Shown in pieces: positions 6,957 to 53,382 of a DNA stretch of 64,000 nt. Under the pieces are notes generated by a model, which made no database searches, had not been told where the DNA came from, and saw nothing but the letters and a program-made list of their open reading frames with translations. Positions within the stretch are counted from its first letter, which is position 1; the number at the start of each line of letters is the position of its first letter. Source of the stretch: Methanobacteriota archaeon (lineage in GTDB: Archaea; Thermoplasmatota; E2; DHVEG-1); contig JAPKYE010000028.1 in NCBI GenBank assembly GCA_026394495.1, forward strand, positions 6,691-70,690. The letters run 5' to 3'. Position numbers and translations under genes: made by a program.

Positions 6957-7015
6957 CCAAAAAGAACACTTCACCAAATCTTGTGAGGTGATGATATACG
7001 CAACATAATACACCA

Positions 7016-7264
7016 ATTGAAAAAGATGAGATCATCGGACGAAACATCATCATAATCACCTGTACCGATCCAACATGGAATGGTGTCAAAGGACTCGTCC
7101 TTGATGAGACCAAATACACCTTTCTCATCGAGAAAGGAACACAACAAAAACGCATAGCAAAAAAAACTGCAACATTTGCATTTGATCAAAACGGCGAAAC
7201 AATAACCGTTGAAGGAAAACGATTAACATATCGACCTGAAGAAAGAATTAAGAAAGCAAGGTGA
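7016..7264 (+). CDS. rnp1: RNase P protein component 1 (Rpp29/Pop4); start codon unclear (no in-frame ATG/GTG/TTG)
   Basis: Frame-2 translation ...[36 protein letters not shown]...ATFAFDQNG matches Rpp29 and sits at the canonical L29-to-S17 position; stop overlaps the rps17 GTG start. Confidence 0.6.
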
Positions 7265-8025: not shown

Positions 8026-8697
8026 ATGATAACATCAAAAAAAGCACGGAAACAACGAAAATATCTTTACAATGCGCCCCTTCATAAGAAACGGAAGTGG
8101 ATTGCATCACATCTTGAAGAAAATTTATTGTTAAAATATGATCGACGAAGCATCCCTGTCATCAAAGGAGACACGGTTAAAGTGATGCGAGGAAACTTCA
8201 AAGGGCATGAGGATAAAATCTCCCATGTGAATGTAAAGAAGCAGATCGTGGAGATCGAAGGGCTCACCATGATTAAAGCAGATGGAAAAAAGATAGCAAA
8301 ACCGATTCACCCAAGTAACGTGCTCATCATAAAATTGAATCTTACTGATTCCTGGCGAAGAGGTATTCTGGAACGAGGTCTTTCTGAAGAAGCAAAGAAA
8401 GAAATCGAACGTGAAGCAAAAGAACAAATTCGCGAACAAGAAATTGCAAAAAAGAAAGCTGAAGAAGACGCAAAGAAAGAAGAAGAACGCATAAAAGCAG
8501 AAGAATCAGAAGAAAAGAAAGAAACAGAACCCGAGACAAAAGCAACGGAACAACCATCTGCAGAGCCAGAGATACAAGAAGAAAAACCTATTGAGGAAAT
8601 CAAAACAGAACCTGCCATAGAGCCAGAAGAGAAAAAAACAAAGAAGATGCCAGCGAAAAAAACCGTTCCGAAGAAGAAAAAGGAGGCTGAACCATGA
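8026..8697 (+). CDS. rpl24: 50S ribosomal protein uL24 with ~100-aa Lys/Glu-rich C-terminal extension
   Basis: KOW-domain L24 core (MITSKKARKQRK...); tail is K/E low complexity; ATG 8026 preferred over GTG 8017. Confidence 0.85.
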   Translation: MITSKKARKQRKYLYNAPLHKKRKWIASHLEENLLLKYDRRSIPVIKGDTVKVMRGNFKGHEDKISHVNVKKQIVEIEGLTMIKADGKKIAKPIHPSNVLIIKLNLTDSWRRGILERGLSEEAKKEIEREAKEQIREQEIAKKKAEEDAKKEEERIKAEESEEKKETEPETKATEQPSAEPEIQEEKPIEEIKTEPAIEPEEKKTKKMPAKKTVPKKKKEAEP

Positions 8698-11871: not shown

Positions 11872-12333
11872 ATGACTGATTTACGAAATCAACGCCGGAT
11901 GGCTGCATCAATTCTGAAATGCGGTAGGAACCGGGTATGGATGGATCCAGACAGAATGGAAGAGATAGCGAAAGCGGTCGTCCGAAAAGACATCCGCGTG
12001 CTCATCAACGGAGGAGCAGTAAAAAGCCTCCGGATACAAGGTATTTCCAGTGGACGAAGAAAATTAAACATCATACAGAAAGAAAAAGGCAGACAACGAG
12101 GCTTTGGCTCACGAAAAGGAAAGAAACATGCACGTCTGCCAAAAAAAGACCGCTGGATGCAAACAATCCGGGCGTTACGGACGTATCTAGCCCAACTTCG
12201 AGAAGAAAAAAAACTGGATCCGACGAGTTACCGAACATACTATATGAAATCAAAAGGCGGCGAATACCGCAGTGTGAACCATTTGAAATCCCATCTGATC
12301 TCAGATGGCGTCATTAAGGAGGAGAAACAATGA
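11872..12333 (+). CDS. rpl19e: 50S ribosomal protein eL19
   Basis: MTDLRNQRRMAASILKCGRNRVWMDP... Confidence 0.9.
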   Translation: MTDLRNQRRMAASILKCGRNRVWMDPDRMEEIAKAVVRKDIRVLINGGAVKSLRIQGISSGRRKLNIIQKEKGRQRGFGSRKGKKHARLPKKDRWMQTIRALRTYLAQLREEKKLDPTSYRTYYMKSKGGEYRSVNHLKSHLISDGVIKEEKQ

Positions 12334-20840: not shown

Positions 20841-21695
20841 ATGAAAAAGGAGAAAAAGAAAAACATGAAAAATACTAAAATTTTTGGGATAGGAATAGCA
20901 GCGTTTATGATTTTAGCTGTATTTACAGTAATGATGGCCACGCCTGTACTGGCTGACGGTGATCCTTATGATGGCGCAAATGGAACCGCAGACCATCCTG
21001 ATGGACATCCTGGTCTACCTGGAGATGCAAGTCATCCAAATGGTGGTAACGGCGGGCATGCGTACCCAGGTAGTACCGGTAATGGTGGAAAAGGTGGCGA
21101 TGGAGCCTACCAAAATCCTGGTGATGGTGGCAAAGGAGGAAATGGTGGACAAAGTGCTGGTAATGGGAATGGCGGGGATGGCGGCAAAGGCGGAGGCAGC
21201 GGATCTGGTAAAGGTGGCGATGGTGGAGACGCGGGAAACTCTGGTCCCGGCAGTGGTAATGGTGGCAAGGGTGGAGAAGCAGGAGGCAGCAGTACTGGTG
21301 AGGGTGGCGAGGGTGGACACGGTGGAAACGCTGGTGGAACTGGTAATGCTGGCGAAGGTGGAGACGGCGGAGACAGCGGTACTGATAATGGCGGAGATGC
21401 AGGAGATGGGGGAAACAGTGTTGGTGGTGGTGGTGGAGACGGCGGAGACGGCGGTGATAGCGGTGGTGGTTTAACTAAACATGCCGGTGATGGCGGTGAT
21501 GGTGGAAATGGAAATCCTCCTGGAGAAGGGGGACATCATGGGACATGTGGAGGTGGGTGGCAAGGCTGGGATGGAGATGACGGCGATGTCCCACCAATAC
21601 CAGGGGAGAAAGGGAAATTTGAAAAGGTCATAAAAGGGATTGAAACAGGTGTGGAAGTAGGGAAAGTAATAGCACCCCTAATAAAAGTAAAGTAA
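20841..21695 (+). CDS. Secreted Gly/Asp/Asn-rich tandem-repeat protein (GNGGKGGDG-type repeats) with signal peptide and basic amphipathic C-terminal tail
   Basis: N-terminal KNTKIFGIGIAAFMILAVFTVMMATPVLA signal; ~200 aa of degenerate GGxGGxG repeats; coding strand G-rich, giving spurious ORFs in other frames. Confidence 0.6.
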   Translation: MKKEKKKNMKNTKIFGIGIAAFMILAVFTVMMATPVLADGDPYDGANGTADHPDGHPGLPGDASHPNGGNGGHAYPGSTGNGGKGGDGAYQNPGDGGKGGNGGQSAGNGNGGDGGKGGGSGSGKGGDGGDAGNSGPGSGNGGKGGEAGGSSTGEGGEGGHGGNAGGTGNAGEGGDGGDSGTDNGGDAGDGGNSVGGGGGDGGDGGDSGGGLTKHAGDGGDGGNGNPPGEGGHHGTCGGGWQGWDGDDGDVPPIPGEKGKFEKVIKGIETGVEVGKVIAPLIKVK

Positions 21696-21760
21696 CTCCC
21701 TTTTTTCCTTTTTTTTCTTTCTCTTTTTTTTCTTTCAGCCTAAGACCTGCTTTTTTTGAC
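21696..21760 (+). terminator. Pyrimidine/T-rich tract downstream of the Gly-rich gene (candidate archaeal oligo-T terminator)
   Basis: ctcccttttttccttttttttctttctcttttttttcttt immediately after the stop codon. Confidence 0.35.
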
Positions 21761-21791
21761 AAAAACCAGACATTCTTTGTCGGAAACCCGA

Positions 21792-22050
21792 TAATTCCCA
21801 TAGGCATGACCTACAACCCCTTTCGTTGACCTGTTTTCAGAAGCTCTAATTACTCAGTAAAAACCAGGAGAAAAACACTTCCTATCTGTGTGACATTTTC
21901 ATTTCCCATCGGCGTCACCCAAAAACACCCTCGTTGACCCAGCCTCCTCCGGGAGAAATTTCCCATCCGCATGACCTGAAGTTTTTCCCATCGGCGTGAC
22001 ATTGCATTTCCCATCTCTGTAACATTTCATTTCCAGTCATTGTGACAACG
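21792..22050 (+). repeat. Array of 7 same-orientation repeats, consensus (A)TTTCCCATCGGCGTGACATT; two ~40-bp long copies and a final block of 4 contiguous 22-25-bp tandem units
   Basis: Copies start at ~21795, 21879, 21904, 21961, 21986, 22008, 22031; copies 1 and 3 extend to ...ACC-N7-ACCC-TTCGTTGACC. Confidence 0.7.
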
Positions 22051-35524: not shown

Positions 35525-36651
35525 ATCGTTTTCTTTTTCCTCTTCACCACAAACAGGAACAATGCAACACCGATAGCAGAGAGAAATACGATAGCTTCAA
35601 ACCCTGGAACCGGAATTGGCCGATACTGCGGCAAAACAACAGATGGTCCTAGATCTTTTGCGATACTATCAGAGCCAACCTGGAAATAATACTGCTGCGA
35701 ATCAACGATCGTGTTGTTAAATGCTTGATCCAGATGATCAAAATAGATAATGACCTGAGCATACGCATGAACAGTCACATTCTTGTTTTTCTCCCAACCA
35801 ATGTATTTCGGATAGGACTTATAAAAATCTCCTTCTTTTGTTGCGTTGATCTCAAGGCCATCATCAACCGTGTAGTAAACCCGACTTACGTTACCTCTCA
35901 CATCAAAAGACAGTGCTGATGCATACGTAACCATGGGACCCGGGGCAATGTCTGCTCCAGCAGGATCGGGTAATCTGATGGTATCGTTATCATAGATAAA
36001 AGAGCCTTGAACGACAGTTGAATGCCCACCTCTATCCTTTGCAGTAATAGTACAATAATACGTTCCCATCATGTTTGTTGGGTTCTCATAGGTGTACGAA
36101 AGAATACTTTTTTCAAAACTGAAAACAGGAGACTGGTTTGTCCCATCAGGAAATTCAATAGTTAAGCTGATATCTTGAATGTTGACGCCGACGTTATCCG
36201 TGATTTTCGCAAGGATCTTAACAGTGCCACCAGCTTCCTGCAACTGTGGTAAACTGACTGCATTCACATTTGGTGGAACATCATCGTAAAAAGGTGGATT
36301 CACAAGTACGATAAGAAGAATAATCCACGTTAAAAAATATGTTGAATACGTCCCTAGCCAACCTTTCCTACCAAAATCAGCCAAATCAATATTCAAACGA
36401 AGGAAAAGATAACGAATCCATGCAGCATTAAAAACACCAAAAAGCAAGACAAGCTCCCATCGAAGGAAACTAGCAGAGAGAAGCGCCCAGAACCCAAAGG
36501 AAATCACAGCGACAATACAACCAAAAAGAAATGCGATGACCGTGGTTTTAATATTACGTCGTTCTCGCTTCAGAAATGCTACCTCGTCAAACTTAGGGAG
36601 TTTAAAATCAAATTCCTCTTCGTCAGACTCTTCTTTTCGTTTCTTTGCCAT
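35521..36651 (-). CDS. Membrane-anchored surface protein with N-terminal TM bundle, extracellular N-glycosylation-rich domain and PGF-CTERM archaeosortase sorting signal
   Basis: C-terminus PGFEAIVFLSAIGVALFLFVVKRKKKTI is the PGF-CTERM tripartite pattern; many N-x-S/T sequons. Confidence 0.6.
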   Translation of the reverse strand: MAKKRKEESDEEEFDFKLPKFDEVAFLKRERRNIKTTVIAFLFGCIVAVISFGFWALLSASFLRWELVLLFGVFNAAWIRYLFLRLNIDLADFGRKGWLGTYSTYFLTWIILLIVLVNPPFYDDVPPNVNAVSLPQLQEAGGTVKILAKITDNVGVNIQDISLTIEFPDGTNQSPVFSFEKSILSYTYENPTNMMGTYYCTITAKDRGGHSTVVQGSFIYDNDTIRLPDPAGADIAPGPMVTYASALSFDVRGNVSRVYYTVDDGLEINATKEGDFYKSYPKYIGWEKNKNVTVHAYAQVIIYFDHLDQAFNNTIVDSQQYYFQVGSDSIAKDLGPSVVLPQYRPIPVPGFEAIVFLSAIGVALFLFVVKRKKKTI

Positions 36652-36721
36652 AGGCCTTCAAGAGGTCGCATAAAGAGTAGTTGTTTAAAAGCATTTTCCC
36701 GTAGAAAAAAGGGTTTTTTGG

Positions 36722-36931
36722 TTATTTCATGATGATTTTAAATTCATCTATCTCTTCAAGAAGCGCTAGGTTTTTACCATTATCCCACTTAATTTTTATA
36801 AGACGATCACCAAGTTCCCCCTCGATTTCAGTGACAACACCCTGATCACCGGGTTTTAACTTTGTCAATTCATCAGTAGTGAATATTAGTTCAATTCTGT
36901 CGCCGACCTTTACCGCTGTTTTTATTCCCAT
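36722..36931 (-). CDS. DUF4314-like small protein (69 aa)
   Basis: VGDRIELIF…LKPGDQGVVTEI…IKIKWDNGKNLALL pattern typical of DUF4314. Confidence 0.5.
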   Translation of the reverse strand: MGIKTAVKVGDRIELIFTTDELTKLKPGDQGVVTEIEGELGDRLIKIKWDNGKNLALLEEIDEFKIIMK

Positions 36932-36972
36932 ATTTTATTTTCTCCTCCCTCTTTTATAAAAAATTTGAGGTA

Positions 36973-37044
36973 TGCGGGCACCGGGATTCGAACCCGGGCA
37001 AACAGCTTGGGAAGCTGCAATCATAACCACTAGATCATACCCGC
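36973..37044 (-). tRNA. tRNA-Gly (anticodon CCC)
   Basis: Reverse complement GCGGGTATGATCTAGTGGTTATGATTGCAGCTTCCCAAGCTGTTTGCCCGGGTTCGAATCCCGGTGCCCGC folds as a cloverleaf: 7-bp acceptor, D-arm, anticodon loop UUCCCAA, T-arm GGTTCGAATCC; A discriminator. Confidence 0.85.
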
Positions 37045-37047
37045 AAG
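37024..37047 (+). repeat. 24-bp direct repeat copy A (tRNA-Gly 5' end nt 1-21 + 3 nt flank), putative att core
   Basis: TAACCACTAGATCATACCCGCAAG identical to 38130-38153. Confidence 0.7.
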
Positions 37048-38129
37048 TTACATGTTCATAGCTGAAACACATGTTCGTAGCTGATTTAAACATAACCGAC
37101 AACATGTAAATCCTTTTCTTTTTTATGCAATAGGTTCATACTTTGCTTGTAGATTTCTAGGTTGATTTCTCCCTTTAAAAACCGACATAACACAGTGCTT
37201 AAACAGAATATAAAACATTTCGATAGACAATCATAACATACGTACTATCCAATGAAGTAACCAAAACTTAGTGTTGACGGTAGTGGGTTCCAATGTGTCG
37301 TCGCCTGGAAATGAATCTCAAGGGTCCCTATATGGTCACCTTCAACAGCACCTTCAGGGATGTTAATTGATATCTGCACCCATACAAAATCAGCTCTCCC
37401 TGATGATGCATTTACATCACTTTGCGAATATCTCACATGTGCAGATCCATCCCAACTCGTAGAAACAGTGACTCCGTCAGAACTCATGCTACTCACATTA
37501 CCATCACCTGTATCTAGCGTCCATGCCGTCGTACTCTTAGAATAATAACTTGTCCCGTTATTGTACATGAACACACAGCTGGCATCTTCCTCAGCCCTCT
37601 GATCGCGGTCTCCATGCAGCCACACCTGCATATAATCATTCATACCACTTGTATTTGAAACCGTTATACGTGTGATATTCACATCAAAAGGTTCCTCGTT
37701 TACGATCGCAAAAGCTGCGGTATATGTCTTGTTCATACCTGCAGACCAATCACCAAAATCAAGTCTCACTATTGCGTTGGTATTGCTGTTGCCGCTGGCG
37801 CGAAGAACACGCAACCCATCAGTTGATGAATTGTCTGATCCAATAAAGCGAATATCTGCTTTGCTTGGATGGACAACTGCACATTGGATTGGTACCTTGG
37901 CCGTGGCATACTGACTGGCAAATACTATGCTCAGTAGAATAACTAGTATACCTACTACTAAGAAACGTGCATCCAAGGGAAATCCTATCCTTTTTTTCCA
38001 AAAAATTATTTTTAATGATGTCGTATGCAGATTGATATCCTTATAAAGTAGATAAATGTAATGTATTTTAGATATAAACAATAACACCATATATTGGCAG
38101 TATAAATTAATGAAAAATAGTGGTTTTCT
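37048..38129 (+). mobile_element. 1.08-kb segment bounded by 24-bp direct repeats at a tRNA gene: putative remnant of a tRNA-targeted integrated element carrying one secreted-protein gene
   Basis: Exact 24-bp direct repeats overlapping the tRNA-Gly 5' end; no integrase within. Confidence 0.35.
37245..38090 (-). CDS. Secreted/membrane-anchored Asn/Ser/Thr-rich protein with many N-glycosylation sequons (hypothetical); true start probably internal, near the hydrophobic segment
   Basis: Signal-like KKRIGFPLDARFLVVGILVILLSIVFASQYATA; numerous NxS/T; lies inside the repeat-bounded segment. Confidence 0.45.
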   Translation of the reverse strand: MVLLFISKIHYIYLLYKDINLHTTSLKIIFWKKRIGFPLDARFLVVGILVILLSIVFASQYATAKVPIQCAVVHPSKADIRFIGSDNSSTDGLRVLRASGNSNTNAIVRLDFGDWSAGMNKTYTAAFAIVNEEPFDVNITRITVSNTSGMNDYMQVWLHGDRDQRAEEDASCVFMYNNGTSYYSKSTTAWTLDTGDGNVSSMSSDGVTVSTSWDGSAHVRYSQSDVNASSGRADFVWVQISINIPEGAVEGDHIGTLEIHFQATTHWNPLPSTLSFGYFIG

Positions 38130-38153
38130 CCTGTAGACTTAACCACTAGATCA
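38130..38153 (+). repeat. 24-bp direct repeat copy B (partial tRNA-Gly 5' fragment)
   Basis: Identical to 37024-37047. Confidence 0.7.
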
Positions 38154-38323
38154 TACCCGCAAGAGAGACTTTCTGTAGTTCATGGATAGTATTTCTATTC
38201 AAATCCTTTTCTTTGTTTACCACACAGGGCATTAACGATTTTAAAACATTAAATCTTATGCCCATTGTAGTTGTTTCTTATAAAACGAAATTAAAATAAG
38301 CTATGTATTTCTTCTGATGTATC

Positions 38324-39337
38324 ATGAAGAGTCTCATCATTGACTACATGCGACTCATGAGGATGCCGGGGATTATCGGCCTAGCCATCACACCAATCGC
38401 CGGGGCTCTCAGCGTCAACAACACATCTCTTGTAGCATTGATCCCCCTGTTTTTTATCGGTGCGATATCAAAAATCTATGGATTTGTCATGAATGATTAT
38501 TTCGATGTCGAGGTAGATAAATTAAGCCCGGATCTCTCTCAAAGAGCGCTTGTGAAAGGTACTATTACAAAAAAACATGCGCTCGCCATCATCGTTAGTT
38601 GTTTTTTTATCGGTTACATAGCGATATTTGTTTTTTTCTTCAAAAACGAGCCTTTTTTCTATATGGGTCTTTTCTGCATTGTAGTAGCAGACATCCTGGG
38701 TTTCATCTATAACAAATACGGAAAACAGTTCATCGGCTCTGATTTTCTTATCGCACTTGCGGAATCGTTGTTTTTCCTCTTCGGAGCACTCATGGTTCTT
38801 CCCAACGGGTCTCTTGGTCTTCTCACATGGATCCTGTTCATAATTCTCTTCAATGAACAACTCTATATGAACGTAATAGTAGGTGGACTAAAAGATGCGG
38901 ATCACGATCCACTCATGAACGTAAAAAACATCGCTCTTGCAAGCGGAGTAAAAGTTGGACCAGAAAACACCTTATCTGTACCTCTAAATTTTAAAATATT
39001 TGGGTTAAGCGAACGCTTCATCTCTTCTTTTCTCGTATTTGTTCCTTTTCTTTTTCTCGGGATCAAATACGAACTCTGGCAAATAGGATTATTGTTAATA
39101 ATTATCGTTTTCCTCATCTCTGAAAGCACATTTATGTTGAGCAGAAAGCGATTTAACAGAAAAGAAATACGAAGACTCATCGGCGCTCAACTAATAACAT
39201 GGCATCCGTTCATGCCAATCATACTTGTCTCAGTTGTTGGCTTCTGGTACCCATTTCTATTAGTTTTTTTAGCTTTGTTTGGATACATTTTCTTTTCATT
39301 ACTGATGGGGCAAAAACTTGATGCCCCAGCAATGTAA
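38324..39337 (+). CDS. UbiA-family prenyltransferase (DGGGP synthase-like) paralog 1
   Basis: Asp-rich motif NDYFDVEVDK; 8-9 TM helices. Confidence 0.7.
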   Translation: MKSLIIDYMRLMRMPGIIGLAITPIAGALSVNNTSLVALIPLFFIGAISKIYGFVMNDYFDVEVDKLSPDLSQRALVKGTITKKHALAIIVSCFFIGYIAIFVFFFKNEPFFYMGLFCIVVADILGFIYNKYGKQFIGSDFLIALAESLFFLFGALMVLPNGSLGLLTWILFIILFNEQLYMNVIVGGLKDADHDPLMNVKNIALASGVKVGPENTLSVPLNFKIFGLSERFISSFLVFVPFLFLGIKYELWQIGLLLIIIVFLISESTFMLSRKRFNRKEIRRLIGAQLITWHPFMPIILVSVVGFWYPFLLVFLALFGYIFFSLLMGQKLDAPAM

Positions 39338-52509: not shown

Positions 52510-53382
52510 ATGAGAAAAATAAAAGCCATCTGGGAGCTCATGCGACTTGAACACGGTATTATGCTTGCGCTCGCAATCCTCGTTGGTGCCCTTATCGCTC
52601 AAAGGACTCTTCCCACACTTGATAAGTTCATTTTCACGTTTTTCACTGCGTTGTTTCTTGAAGCAAGTACCTTTGCTCTTAATGATTACTATGATGTCGA
52701 GATTGACAAAAAAAACAACCGAACCGATCGACCTTTGGTCCGTGGAGATCTTTTACCAAAAACCGCGCTGTATATCTTTTTTATCTGTTTTCCTCTTGGT
52801 ATCCTTTGTTCGTATTTTGTGAATATCCCTTGTTTTGTTATTGCATTGATCACCGCGATATTCGCCATTATTTATGATATGATACTAAAAAAAATAAAGC
52901 TGCTGGGGAATTTTTTCATCGCATACATTATGGCGATCCCGTTTGTGTTCGGTGCAGCAGCTGTGATGAACAATAGCCTTGCGTTTCCCCCAGCGATATG
53001 GATCATTGCATTGATCGCGTTTCTCGCTGGTGCAGGTCGAGAAATCATGAAGGATGTGATGGATTTCAAAGGAGACAGCGAACGTGGCGTGAAATCATTT
53101 CCCAGGTATATCGGTATTCGAAAATCCAATATTGTTTCCGCATTGTTTTATTTTTTTGCTGTTGTTCTTAGTTTTATTCCTTTTCTCTTTTTTGGATATG
53201 GATTGTATTATCAAAACTATTATTATCTTTTCATCATCATACTAACTGATGTGATGTTTCTTTGGACGATACTTGCACTACTAAAAACAAAGGAAATTAA
53301 CATGAAGTTTCATCGAAGATTCACCTTGGTTGCCATCTTTATTGGTCTCCTTGGGTTTTTAATCCCTGTTTTTATTTGGTGA
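52510..53382 (+). CDS. UbiA-family prenyltransferase (DGGGP synthase-like) paralog 2
   Basis: NDYYDVEIDKKNNRTDRPL Asp-rich motif; multi-TM. Confidence 0.7.
   Translation: MRKIKAIWELMRLEHGIMLALAILVGALIAQRTLPTLDKFIFTFFTALFLEASTFALNDYYDVEIDKKNNRTDRPLVRGDLLPKTALYIFFICFPLGILCSYFVNIPCFVIALITAIFAIIYDMILKKIKLLGNFFIAYIMAIPFVFGAAAVMNNSLAFPPAIWIIALIAFLAGAGREIMKDVMDFKGDSERGVKSFPRYIGIRKSNIVSALFYFFAVVLSFIPFLFFGYGLYYQNYYYLFIIILTDVMFLWTILALLKTKEINMKFHRRFTLVAIFIGLLGFLIPVFIW

Follow-up and report, generated by a model that had tools for sequence, protein, structure and literature searches.

The sole tRNA gene in the 64-kb stretch of the Thermoplasmatota contig JAPKYE010000028.1 analyzed here (hereinafter the window) is an intact tRNA-Gly(CCC) on the minus strand (36973–37044; Rfam RF00005, 62.6 bits; ARAGORN span 36972–37045 with the anticodon CCC), whose 5′ end recurs as a displaced fragment 1.1 kb away. 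We propose, with a probability of roughly 0.88, that the region 37024–38163 between and including these copies is what deletions have left of an integrative element that a tyrosine recombinase inserted into the 5′ part of this tRNA gene. The proposal is founded on the remnant of an integrase gene next to the tRNA, the homology of both ends of the segment to the ends of related elements, the existence of empty sites in relatives, and a related contig that carries more of the same integrase. A first-pass annotation made from the sequence alone had noted the tRNA-Gly(CCC) gene and had read the repeat as the attL and attR cores left by an integrase-mediated insertion; both claims are borne out by the evidence presented below.

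The direct repeat

The repeat is a 24-mer, TAACCACTAGATCATACCCGCAAG, corresponding to the reverse complement of nucleotides 1–21 of the tRNA and three upstream nucleotides. The window contains exactly two copies in direct orientation, both exact matches: the proximal one at 37024–37047 (the attL core) and the displaced tRNA 5′ fragment at 38140–38163 (the attR core). The second copy had earlier been placed 10 nt too low, at 38130–38153, with the result that the bounded segment was given as 37048–38129 and its end cut through the repeat; the segment runs from 37048 to 38139 and is 1,092 bp long. No further copies of the 24-mer were found in the window even when up to three mismatches were allowed, and 100 dinucleotide shuffles give a chance expectation of 0 for the repeat. 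Similarity around it stretches weakly to 33 nt (88%) but is not significant past the 24-mer. The distal copy is not followed by the 3′ part of the tRNA, with neither ARAGORN nor Rfam calling a tRNA at 38140–38163, and no additional copy of the tRNA-Gly(CCC) 3′ part is present elsewhere in the window.

A contig of Logan unitigs from SRR20698646 (L001) spans 36989–38929, including both repeat copies, with 99.95% identity. As this independent unitig was built with a k-mer of 31, which exceeds the length of the repeat, the layout is not a misassembly induced by the repeat. The unitigs of this sample break inside the tRNA gene, with one (L192) ending at 37013 and L001 starting at 36989; this suggests that the graph branches at the tRNA, the sample containing further genomes or variants in which differing flanks surround the same tRNA.

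The integrase remnant and its family

Scanning the JGI metagenomes for the 21-nt 5′ core of the tRNA recovered 110 loci, and clustering all open reading frames (ORFs) of these loci revealed a family of integrases of 328–331 amino acids (aa), whose members sit 40–65 nt from the 5′ end of the tRNA and on its strand. The window retains the very end of such a gene: an integrase pseudogene on the minus strand (37086–37193), which comprises the last 35 codons of a XerA-like tyrosine recombinase and a TAA stop (37086–37088). Positions 37193–37089 read VLCRFLKGEINLEIYKQSMNLLHKKEKDLHVVGYV before the stop, and 30 of these 35 residues are identical to residues 294–328 of the integrase from locus L187 (tblastn, E = 1e-13); an alignment of C-termini likewise pairs the remnant with this 328-aa protein. 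The breakpoint in the gene lies at about 37193–37200. The whole catalytic domain is missing, and with it all catalytic residues; nothing else of the gene is left, and no other integrase was found in the window. Thus, the earlier statement that the segment encodes no integrase holds for a complete gene, but it overlooked this 3′ remnant. A 606-nt ENA contig (L193) is 95.5% identical to the window over 36613–37192, with an identical DUF4314 protein, and continues into more integrase codons exactly at the point where the two diverge. Hence, the truncation is recent and occurred within this species-level lineage.

Full-length integrases occur beside the same tRNA in eight loci (L143, L106, L188, L147, L187, L153, L197 and L199), and truncated ones in four others (L129, L141, L176 and L157). 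The family matches Pfam PF00589 (Phage_integrase) with 54 bits (E = 2e-14), and its nearest solved structure is XerA of T. acidophilum (PDB 5hxy; E = 2.5e-21). Alignment to the latter shows that, of the R..K..HxxR..H/W..Y active-site set, the catalytic tyrosine (RYDH) and the box I arginine are present. Against the NCBIfam XerA equivalog NF040815 the integrase scores 100.1 bits, below the cut-off of 220 bits. Among sequenced phages and plasmids only generic integrases of about 23% identity were recovered, with no close relative.

A conserved gene of about 113 aa abuts the integrase upstream (in window orientation, L187 2171–2638, L153 3011–3352 and L106 4076–4417); it has no Pfam match and could encode an excisionase or an accessory factor. 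Two of the loci with a full integrase also offer a view of further content. In L106 (4740–14193), the N-termini of ORFs resemble, by reading and without annotation, a large restriction/modification enzyme and a reverse transcriptase, and L197 (1–10000) codes for an N6/N4 DNA methylase and a UvrD-PDDEXK helicase-nuclease, as detected with Pfam.

Conserved arms at both ends of the segment

Between the integrase stop and the core lies the tRNA-adjoining P′ arm (37048–37085, minus strand), which is kept in all integrase-bearing loci and is 82–91% identical to its counterparts in L187, L153 and L157. All family members share in this interval tandem 19-nt repeats of the form GCTATGAACATGTG (tRNA sense), found at the same place in L187, L153, L106, L143, L131 and others; in the window two of them (ACATGTTCrTAGCTGA) occupy 37050–37068 and 37069–37087. 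By eye, the repeats resemble the tRNA core GGGTATGATCTAGTGG at 11–12 of 19 positions; they may be extra binding sites for the integrase or decayed older cores. A TATA-like TTTAAAT (37084–37090, minus sense), common to the family, overlaps the integrase stop codon and is the predicted promoter of the reconstituted tRNA. A scan for bacterial-type promoters and terminators was uninformative, the host being an archaeon.

At the other end, the displaced tRNA fragment is adjoined by a 36-nt remnant of the distal P arm (38104–38139). The interval 38104–38160 shows 96.5% identity to L150 and L102 across 57 nt and 84% identity to L183, and in each of these the matching region is the left flank of a tRNA 5′ fragment; for the 36 nt of the arm, the identity to the element-side flanks of orphan tRNA fragments elsewhere is 96%. 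More generally, a conserved module of about 100 nt precedes 20 of 21 tRNA fragment copies (e.g., L157 3490–3577). It contains two to four TCGTCGA repeats spaced 11–12 nt apart, about one helical turn, which look like putative arm-type protein-binding sites. The window keeps only the 36 nt proximal to the core and has lost the TCGTCGA repeats. A coding role for the P arm, whether as an Int(N) or as a small ORF, was rejected, for both candidate frames have frequent stops and no start codons. As the P′ and P arms match other loci, each end of the segment has its homologs at the ends of related elements.

Empty, occupied and horizontally shared sites

At least 14 of the loci show an empty arrangement, in which DUF4314 and the tRNA are followed after about 90 bp by DsrE-DUF2064-FeS-DedA; here, the tRNA abuts the genes that in the window lie beyond the insert and a UbiA-family gene. 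Six other contigs have the layout of the window, with a full tRNA and a direct copy of its 5′ end (21–46 nt) placed 1.6–5.1 kb upstream, and about 20 more copies of the core are orphan fragments without the tRNA 3′ part. In 21 independent loci, one and the same tRNA position (nt 21–24) marks where the fragment has its left boundary. A close pair is formed by L100, which is empty, and L131, which has a 5.1-kb insert: across 3.8 kb of DsrE-side flank they share 95.8% identity, and their tRNAs are 100% identical. The first-pass annotation had entertained the prospects that all relatives would share the 1.1-kb segment or that the repeat would be a conserved duplication of a tRNA promoter; the relatives do not have the segment in common with the window, and the repeat is not such a duplication.

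Outside the tRNA, the element side (149 nt) is 89–91% identical to L187 and L153, whereas the host side (251 nt, DUF4314) is 57–62% identical to the same two loci. The element DNA is hence more alike than the host flank, which points to horizontal transfer.

Certain other features of this tRNA were observed in the metagenome loci. It is also struck at its 3′ end: copies of the 3′ 22-mer lie beside DUF4314, 7–8 kb from a full tRNA (in window orientation, L107 4741 with the full tRNA at 12159, and L161 293 with the full tRNA at 8481). As copies arise from both the 5′ and 3′ sides, both ends of tRNA-Gly(CCC) are insertion hot spots. The flank on the tRNA 3′ side is of two types, one with DUF4314 and one with a small ORF that follows a 275-aa ORF, both of these ORFs being unannotated. 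The repeat-bounded segment at the same tRNA in L167 (137–4793) carries TFB, TBP and Alba genes (Pfam), which are either basal transcription-factor paralogs borne as island cargo or host genes trapped between att sites. In L101, the tRNA (7002–7075) has the 5′ acceptor strand GCGGATA with a compensated 3′ strand, and the distal fragment (13626) reads GCGGGTA; the att copies thus differ by one base within the core. Finally, L129 shows the order P-core-P′-integrase, which could represent an attP or a tandem array.

A model for integration and decay

The integrase is located between the two repeat copies, just as it is in classical integrative elements. In the model that we favor, the circular element would have had an attP core made of tRNA nucleotides 1–21 and a few upstream nucleotides, with the arm P′ situated just downstream of the integrase gene and the arm P bearing the helically phased TCGTCGA repeats. 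The predicted junction of the circle is CTCCTGTAGACT + core + AAGTTACATGTTCATAG (38139, the core, and then 37048), and the predicted attB junction, joining the tRNA to 38164 onward, is GCTGCAATCA + core + AAGAGAGACTTTCTG. Integration would have rebuilt an intact tRNA, of which the first 21 or more nucleotides and the promoter region would be element-derived (attL), and would have displaced the original 5′ fragment, along with the upstream DNA native to it, by 1.1 kb (attR). A later internal deletion or replacement would then have removed about 293 integrase codons and all but 36 nt of the P arm; what is left besides is the 3′ end of the integrase gene and the cargo gene for a secreted, pilin-like protein. 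We infer this order of events from the arrangement of the surviving parts, and the remnant would be immobile by itself. The P′ arm and the integrase 3′ end presumably persist because they now carry the promoter of the tRNA, a role that would explain their survival while the rest of the gene was lost. Of the two options first offered for the segment, a decayed element or a cargo gene captured between att-like sites, the former is supported by the integrase pseudogene, the arms and the ENA contig with more of the integrase.

Several observations weigh against this model. The HxxR motif of XerA reads YIIK in the integrase family (L187 residues ~225–232 in the alignment to 5hxy), with a lysine in place of the second arginine. 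No contig was found with a complete element, i.e., a full integrase and both att copies, and near the full-length integrases no second core was detected within 8–11 kb with up to 4–6 mismatches allowed. The interior of the segment (~37193–38103, 911 bp), which includes the cargo gene, has no nucleotide match in any related locus, and homologs of the cargo occur in unrelated contexts; the cargo may have belonged to the original element or have replaced its interior. The comparison with related genomes that had been called for yielded empty sites in relatives, but none from the species of the window itself; on the far side, its closest relative (L133) begins just 4 nt ahead of the core, such that it reads neither as empty nor as occupied.

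Look-ups of the exact UbiA, DsrE, cargo and DUF4314 proteins returned only SRR20698646 and one 606-nt ENA contig, with no insertion-free strain, and a scan of IMG/VR for the 21-mer core had no match. Relatives in GTDB found via a neighboring radical-SAM protein (52–62% identical) keep synteny up to the EMC6-like gene and have no tRNA-Gly at this place, which precludes an empty-site comparison with them.

Alternative explanations

The alternative that survives best, though we consider it quite improbable, is that the 1.1-kb segment is still mobile as a non-autonomous mini-element (a cis-mobilizable cassette) moved in trans by a related integrase elsewhere in the genome, with the tRNA serving as a cassette-exchange platform for surface-protein genes. 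Both cores are indeed perfect 24-mers and the P′ arm is intact; several other integrase-less inserts also keep perfect 22–46-nt repeats and conserved arms, and L131 has an integrase-less insert that the 96%-identical L100 is without. Nevertheless, only 36 nt of the ~100-nt P-arm module are left, without its TCGTCGA repeats, the rest of the window offers no integrase that might act in trans, and the metagenome loci contain no attP-type junction for this cargo. Moreover, in intact relatives the integrase is within the repeat-bounded unit, a layout that is not integron-like. In integrons the resident integrase is outside the array at attI and the cassettes carry attC; here, the integrase is between the two cores, and the conserved P arms on the integrase-less inserts fit attP arms. 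CIMEs (cis-mobilizable elements) are att-flanked segments without recombination genes, known from the sites of integrative and conjugative elements in Streptococcus. The segment shares with them its short attL/attR-bounded form without a working integrase but differs in its shortened distal arm and in showing no sign of mobilization in trans.

A wider version of this idea can be entertained tentatively, although we deem it improbable: the integrase-less inserts at this tRNA, including the pilin-like gene of the window, might all be cassettes moved in trans by the family integrases and recognized via the ~100-nt P-arm module and the tRNA-like core, making the 5′ end of tRNA-Gly(CCC) a gene-cassette exchange site in sediment Thermoplasmatota. 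If true, it would entail a shuffling of secreted and surface proteins, radical-SAM enzymes and even TBP/TFB paralogs.

We find it very hard to credit that an SSV/pTN3-type "suicidal" integrase was split on integration, with the open frame in the P arm (..ENIAEILVDFLVEK..ITTRSYPR) as the Int(N) remnant. In its favor, pTN3-like integrases are the archaeal family described for the 5′ half of tRNAs (PMC8371274), and one plus-strand frame is open through the core. Such systems have attP within the integrase ORF, and integration splits the gene into Int(N) and Int(C); here, the integrase ORFs are intact when integrated and end 40–65 nt before the core, the P-arm frames bear stops in many loci and have no start codons, and the best sequence relatives are XerA-type rather than SSV-type. 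An origin without site-specific recombination, be it a partial duplication in situ of the 5′ end or the promoter of the tRNA, chance or an assembly artefact with an unrelated gene in between, might draw on the tiny size of the segment, its want of a working integrase and its GC content of 0.416, equal to that of the surroundings, but is exceedingly improbable given the zero chance expectation, the k = 31 unitig across both copies, the integrase remnant and two conserved arms exactly at the repeat boundaries and the constant fragment boundary (nt 21–24) in 21 loci.

Relationship to known tRNA-targeting systems

As a deletion-decayed element, the segment closely parallels the classical islands and proviruses that tyrosine integrases place in tRNA genes, including those that have since decayed (Williams 2002; She et al. 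2004; PMC6563490). Direct repeats of a part of the tRNA serve as its bounds, the integrase is inside the element at the tRNA-proximal end, and the tRNA is reconstituted; variable cargo, decay of the integrase by deletion and re-use of the site are likewise shared. The difference is that the crossover here is in the 5′-distal part of the tRNA (nt 1–21, the acceptor and D arm) and not in the usual 3′ part, and therefore the element must supply the tRNA 5′ end and promoter. Integration into the 5′-distal part is "considerably less frequent" (Krupovic et al. 2019, PMC6563490), and according to a 2021 review attB sites in the 5′ half are, in archaea, unique to pTN3-like integrases (PMC8371274). As far as the summary of the Thermococcales elements in that review goes (Cossu et al. 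2017, via PMC8371274), they share with the present system an attB in the 5′ part of the tRNA and a rebuilt tRNA that relies on element-borne upstream sequence. In contrast, the integrase described here is unsplit, ends upstream of the core, is XerA-like and belongs to a host phylum, Thermoplasmatota, distinct from theirs. On the account given in the review, this family would be a second archaeal 5′-targeting family, unrelated to the pTN3-like one.

The archaeal XerA dimer resolvase (5hxy) is the best relative of the family among solved structures. Beyond the sub-cut-off equivalog score noted above, the integrases differ from it in having an extra C-terminal tail of about 50 aa and in the setting of their gene, which is found next to a tRNA with att duplications and is not a lone housekeeping gene.

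In sum, genome scars of this kind are known and ordinary; this one was produced by a little-known 5′-targeting integrase family. For this genome it marks a small horizontally acquired scar and accounts for the placement of a single gene for a secreted, pilin-like protein between the tRNA and a prenyltransferase gene. Knowledge of integration itself is unchanged. The modest, mildly new addition is the 5′-targeting, non-split integrase family: the comparison uncovered an uncharacterized group of XerA-like enzymes in uncultivated Thermoplasmatota that target the 5′ part of tRNA-Gly(CCC), which is useful for the annotation of islands in archaeal metagenome-assembled genomes (MAGs) and for studying the replacement of tRNA promoters by elements.

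The cargo gene

The cargo gene (37245–37976, minus strand) codes for a predicted secreted β-sandwich protein of 243 aa with a Sec-type signal peptide (cleavage at ATA|K) and seven N-x-S/T sequons. The ORF of 37245–38090 reported in the first-pass annotation exists as the longest reading frame and has the signal peptide and seven sequons; its true start is likely the TTG at 37976, which agrees both with the database protein P0001 and with where homologs have their N-termini. The protein is deposited as NT038_04345 ("Euryarchaeota archaeon") and is a member of a family of over 200 proteins from Thermoplasmatota MAGs, each about 230 aa long, with at least two paralogs in the same MAG. The homologs are single genes in varied, unrelated contexts. 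Searches of Pfam and NCBIfam returned no match for the cargo protein; a DUF2271 hit in Pfam (16.7 bits against a cut-off of 27.3) was disregarded.

The protein does look like a secreted pilin-like β-sandwich protein. It differs from the archaeal donor-strand (TasA/AbpA-like) pilins, which combine a β-sandwich fold with an N-terminal donor strand behind the signal peptide (Pyrobaculum AbpA, 7ueg; Sulfolobus threads, 7pnb; Natrinema Tafi, 9p0a) in that its identity to them is 8–15% and no assembly genes lie near it. The EMC6-like protein encoded beyond DUF4314 has at its C-terminus PGF, then a hydrophobic tail and then basic residues, which is the pattern of a PGF-CTERM anchor. The suggestion that a surface-protein cargo next to a PGF-CTERM protein signifies cell-surface variation remains speculation and is not supported as it was put forward.

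The chromosomal neighborhood

The window is part of the core chromosome, with ribosomal proteins, GluRS, the archaeosine TGT and PurH among its genes. Along the tRNA strand the order is a DsrE-like gene, a UbiA-family gene (on the opposite strand), the distal repeat, the cargo gene, the tRNA, DUF4314 and the EMC6-like gene. Between the displaced fragment and the UbiA-family gene is the chromosomal-side flank B′ (38164–38323), presumed to be the original upstream region of the tRNA. The interval 38140–38330 is 92.9% identical to L133, which runs on into UbiA (95% aa identity) and DsrE (87%).

The UbiA-family gene itself (38324–39337, plus strand) is missing between the tRNA and DsrE in most relatives, where the tRNA abuts DsrE; besides L133, it is present in L186 (62% aa identity), at a distance of 3.4 kb from the tRNA, and may have been gained at this hot spot at an earlier time.

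Elsewhere in the window, the region 21001–22000 is a compositional outlier, with a GC content of 0.515 and a GC skew of +0.26 compared to a GC content of ~0.41 elsewhere, and overlaps a 284-aa ORF (20841–21695) without a Pfam match. A second UbiA-family gene is located at 52510–53382.

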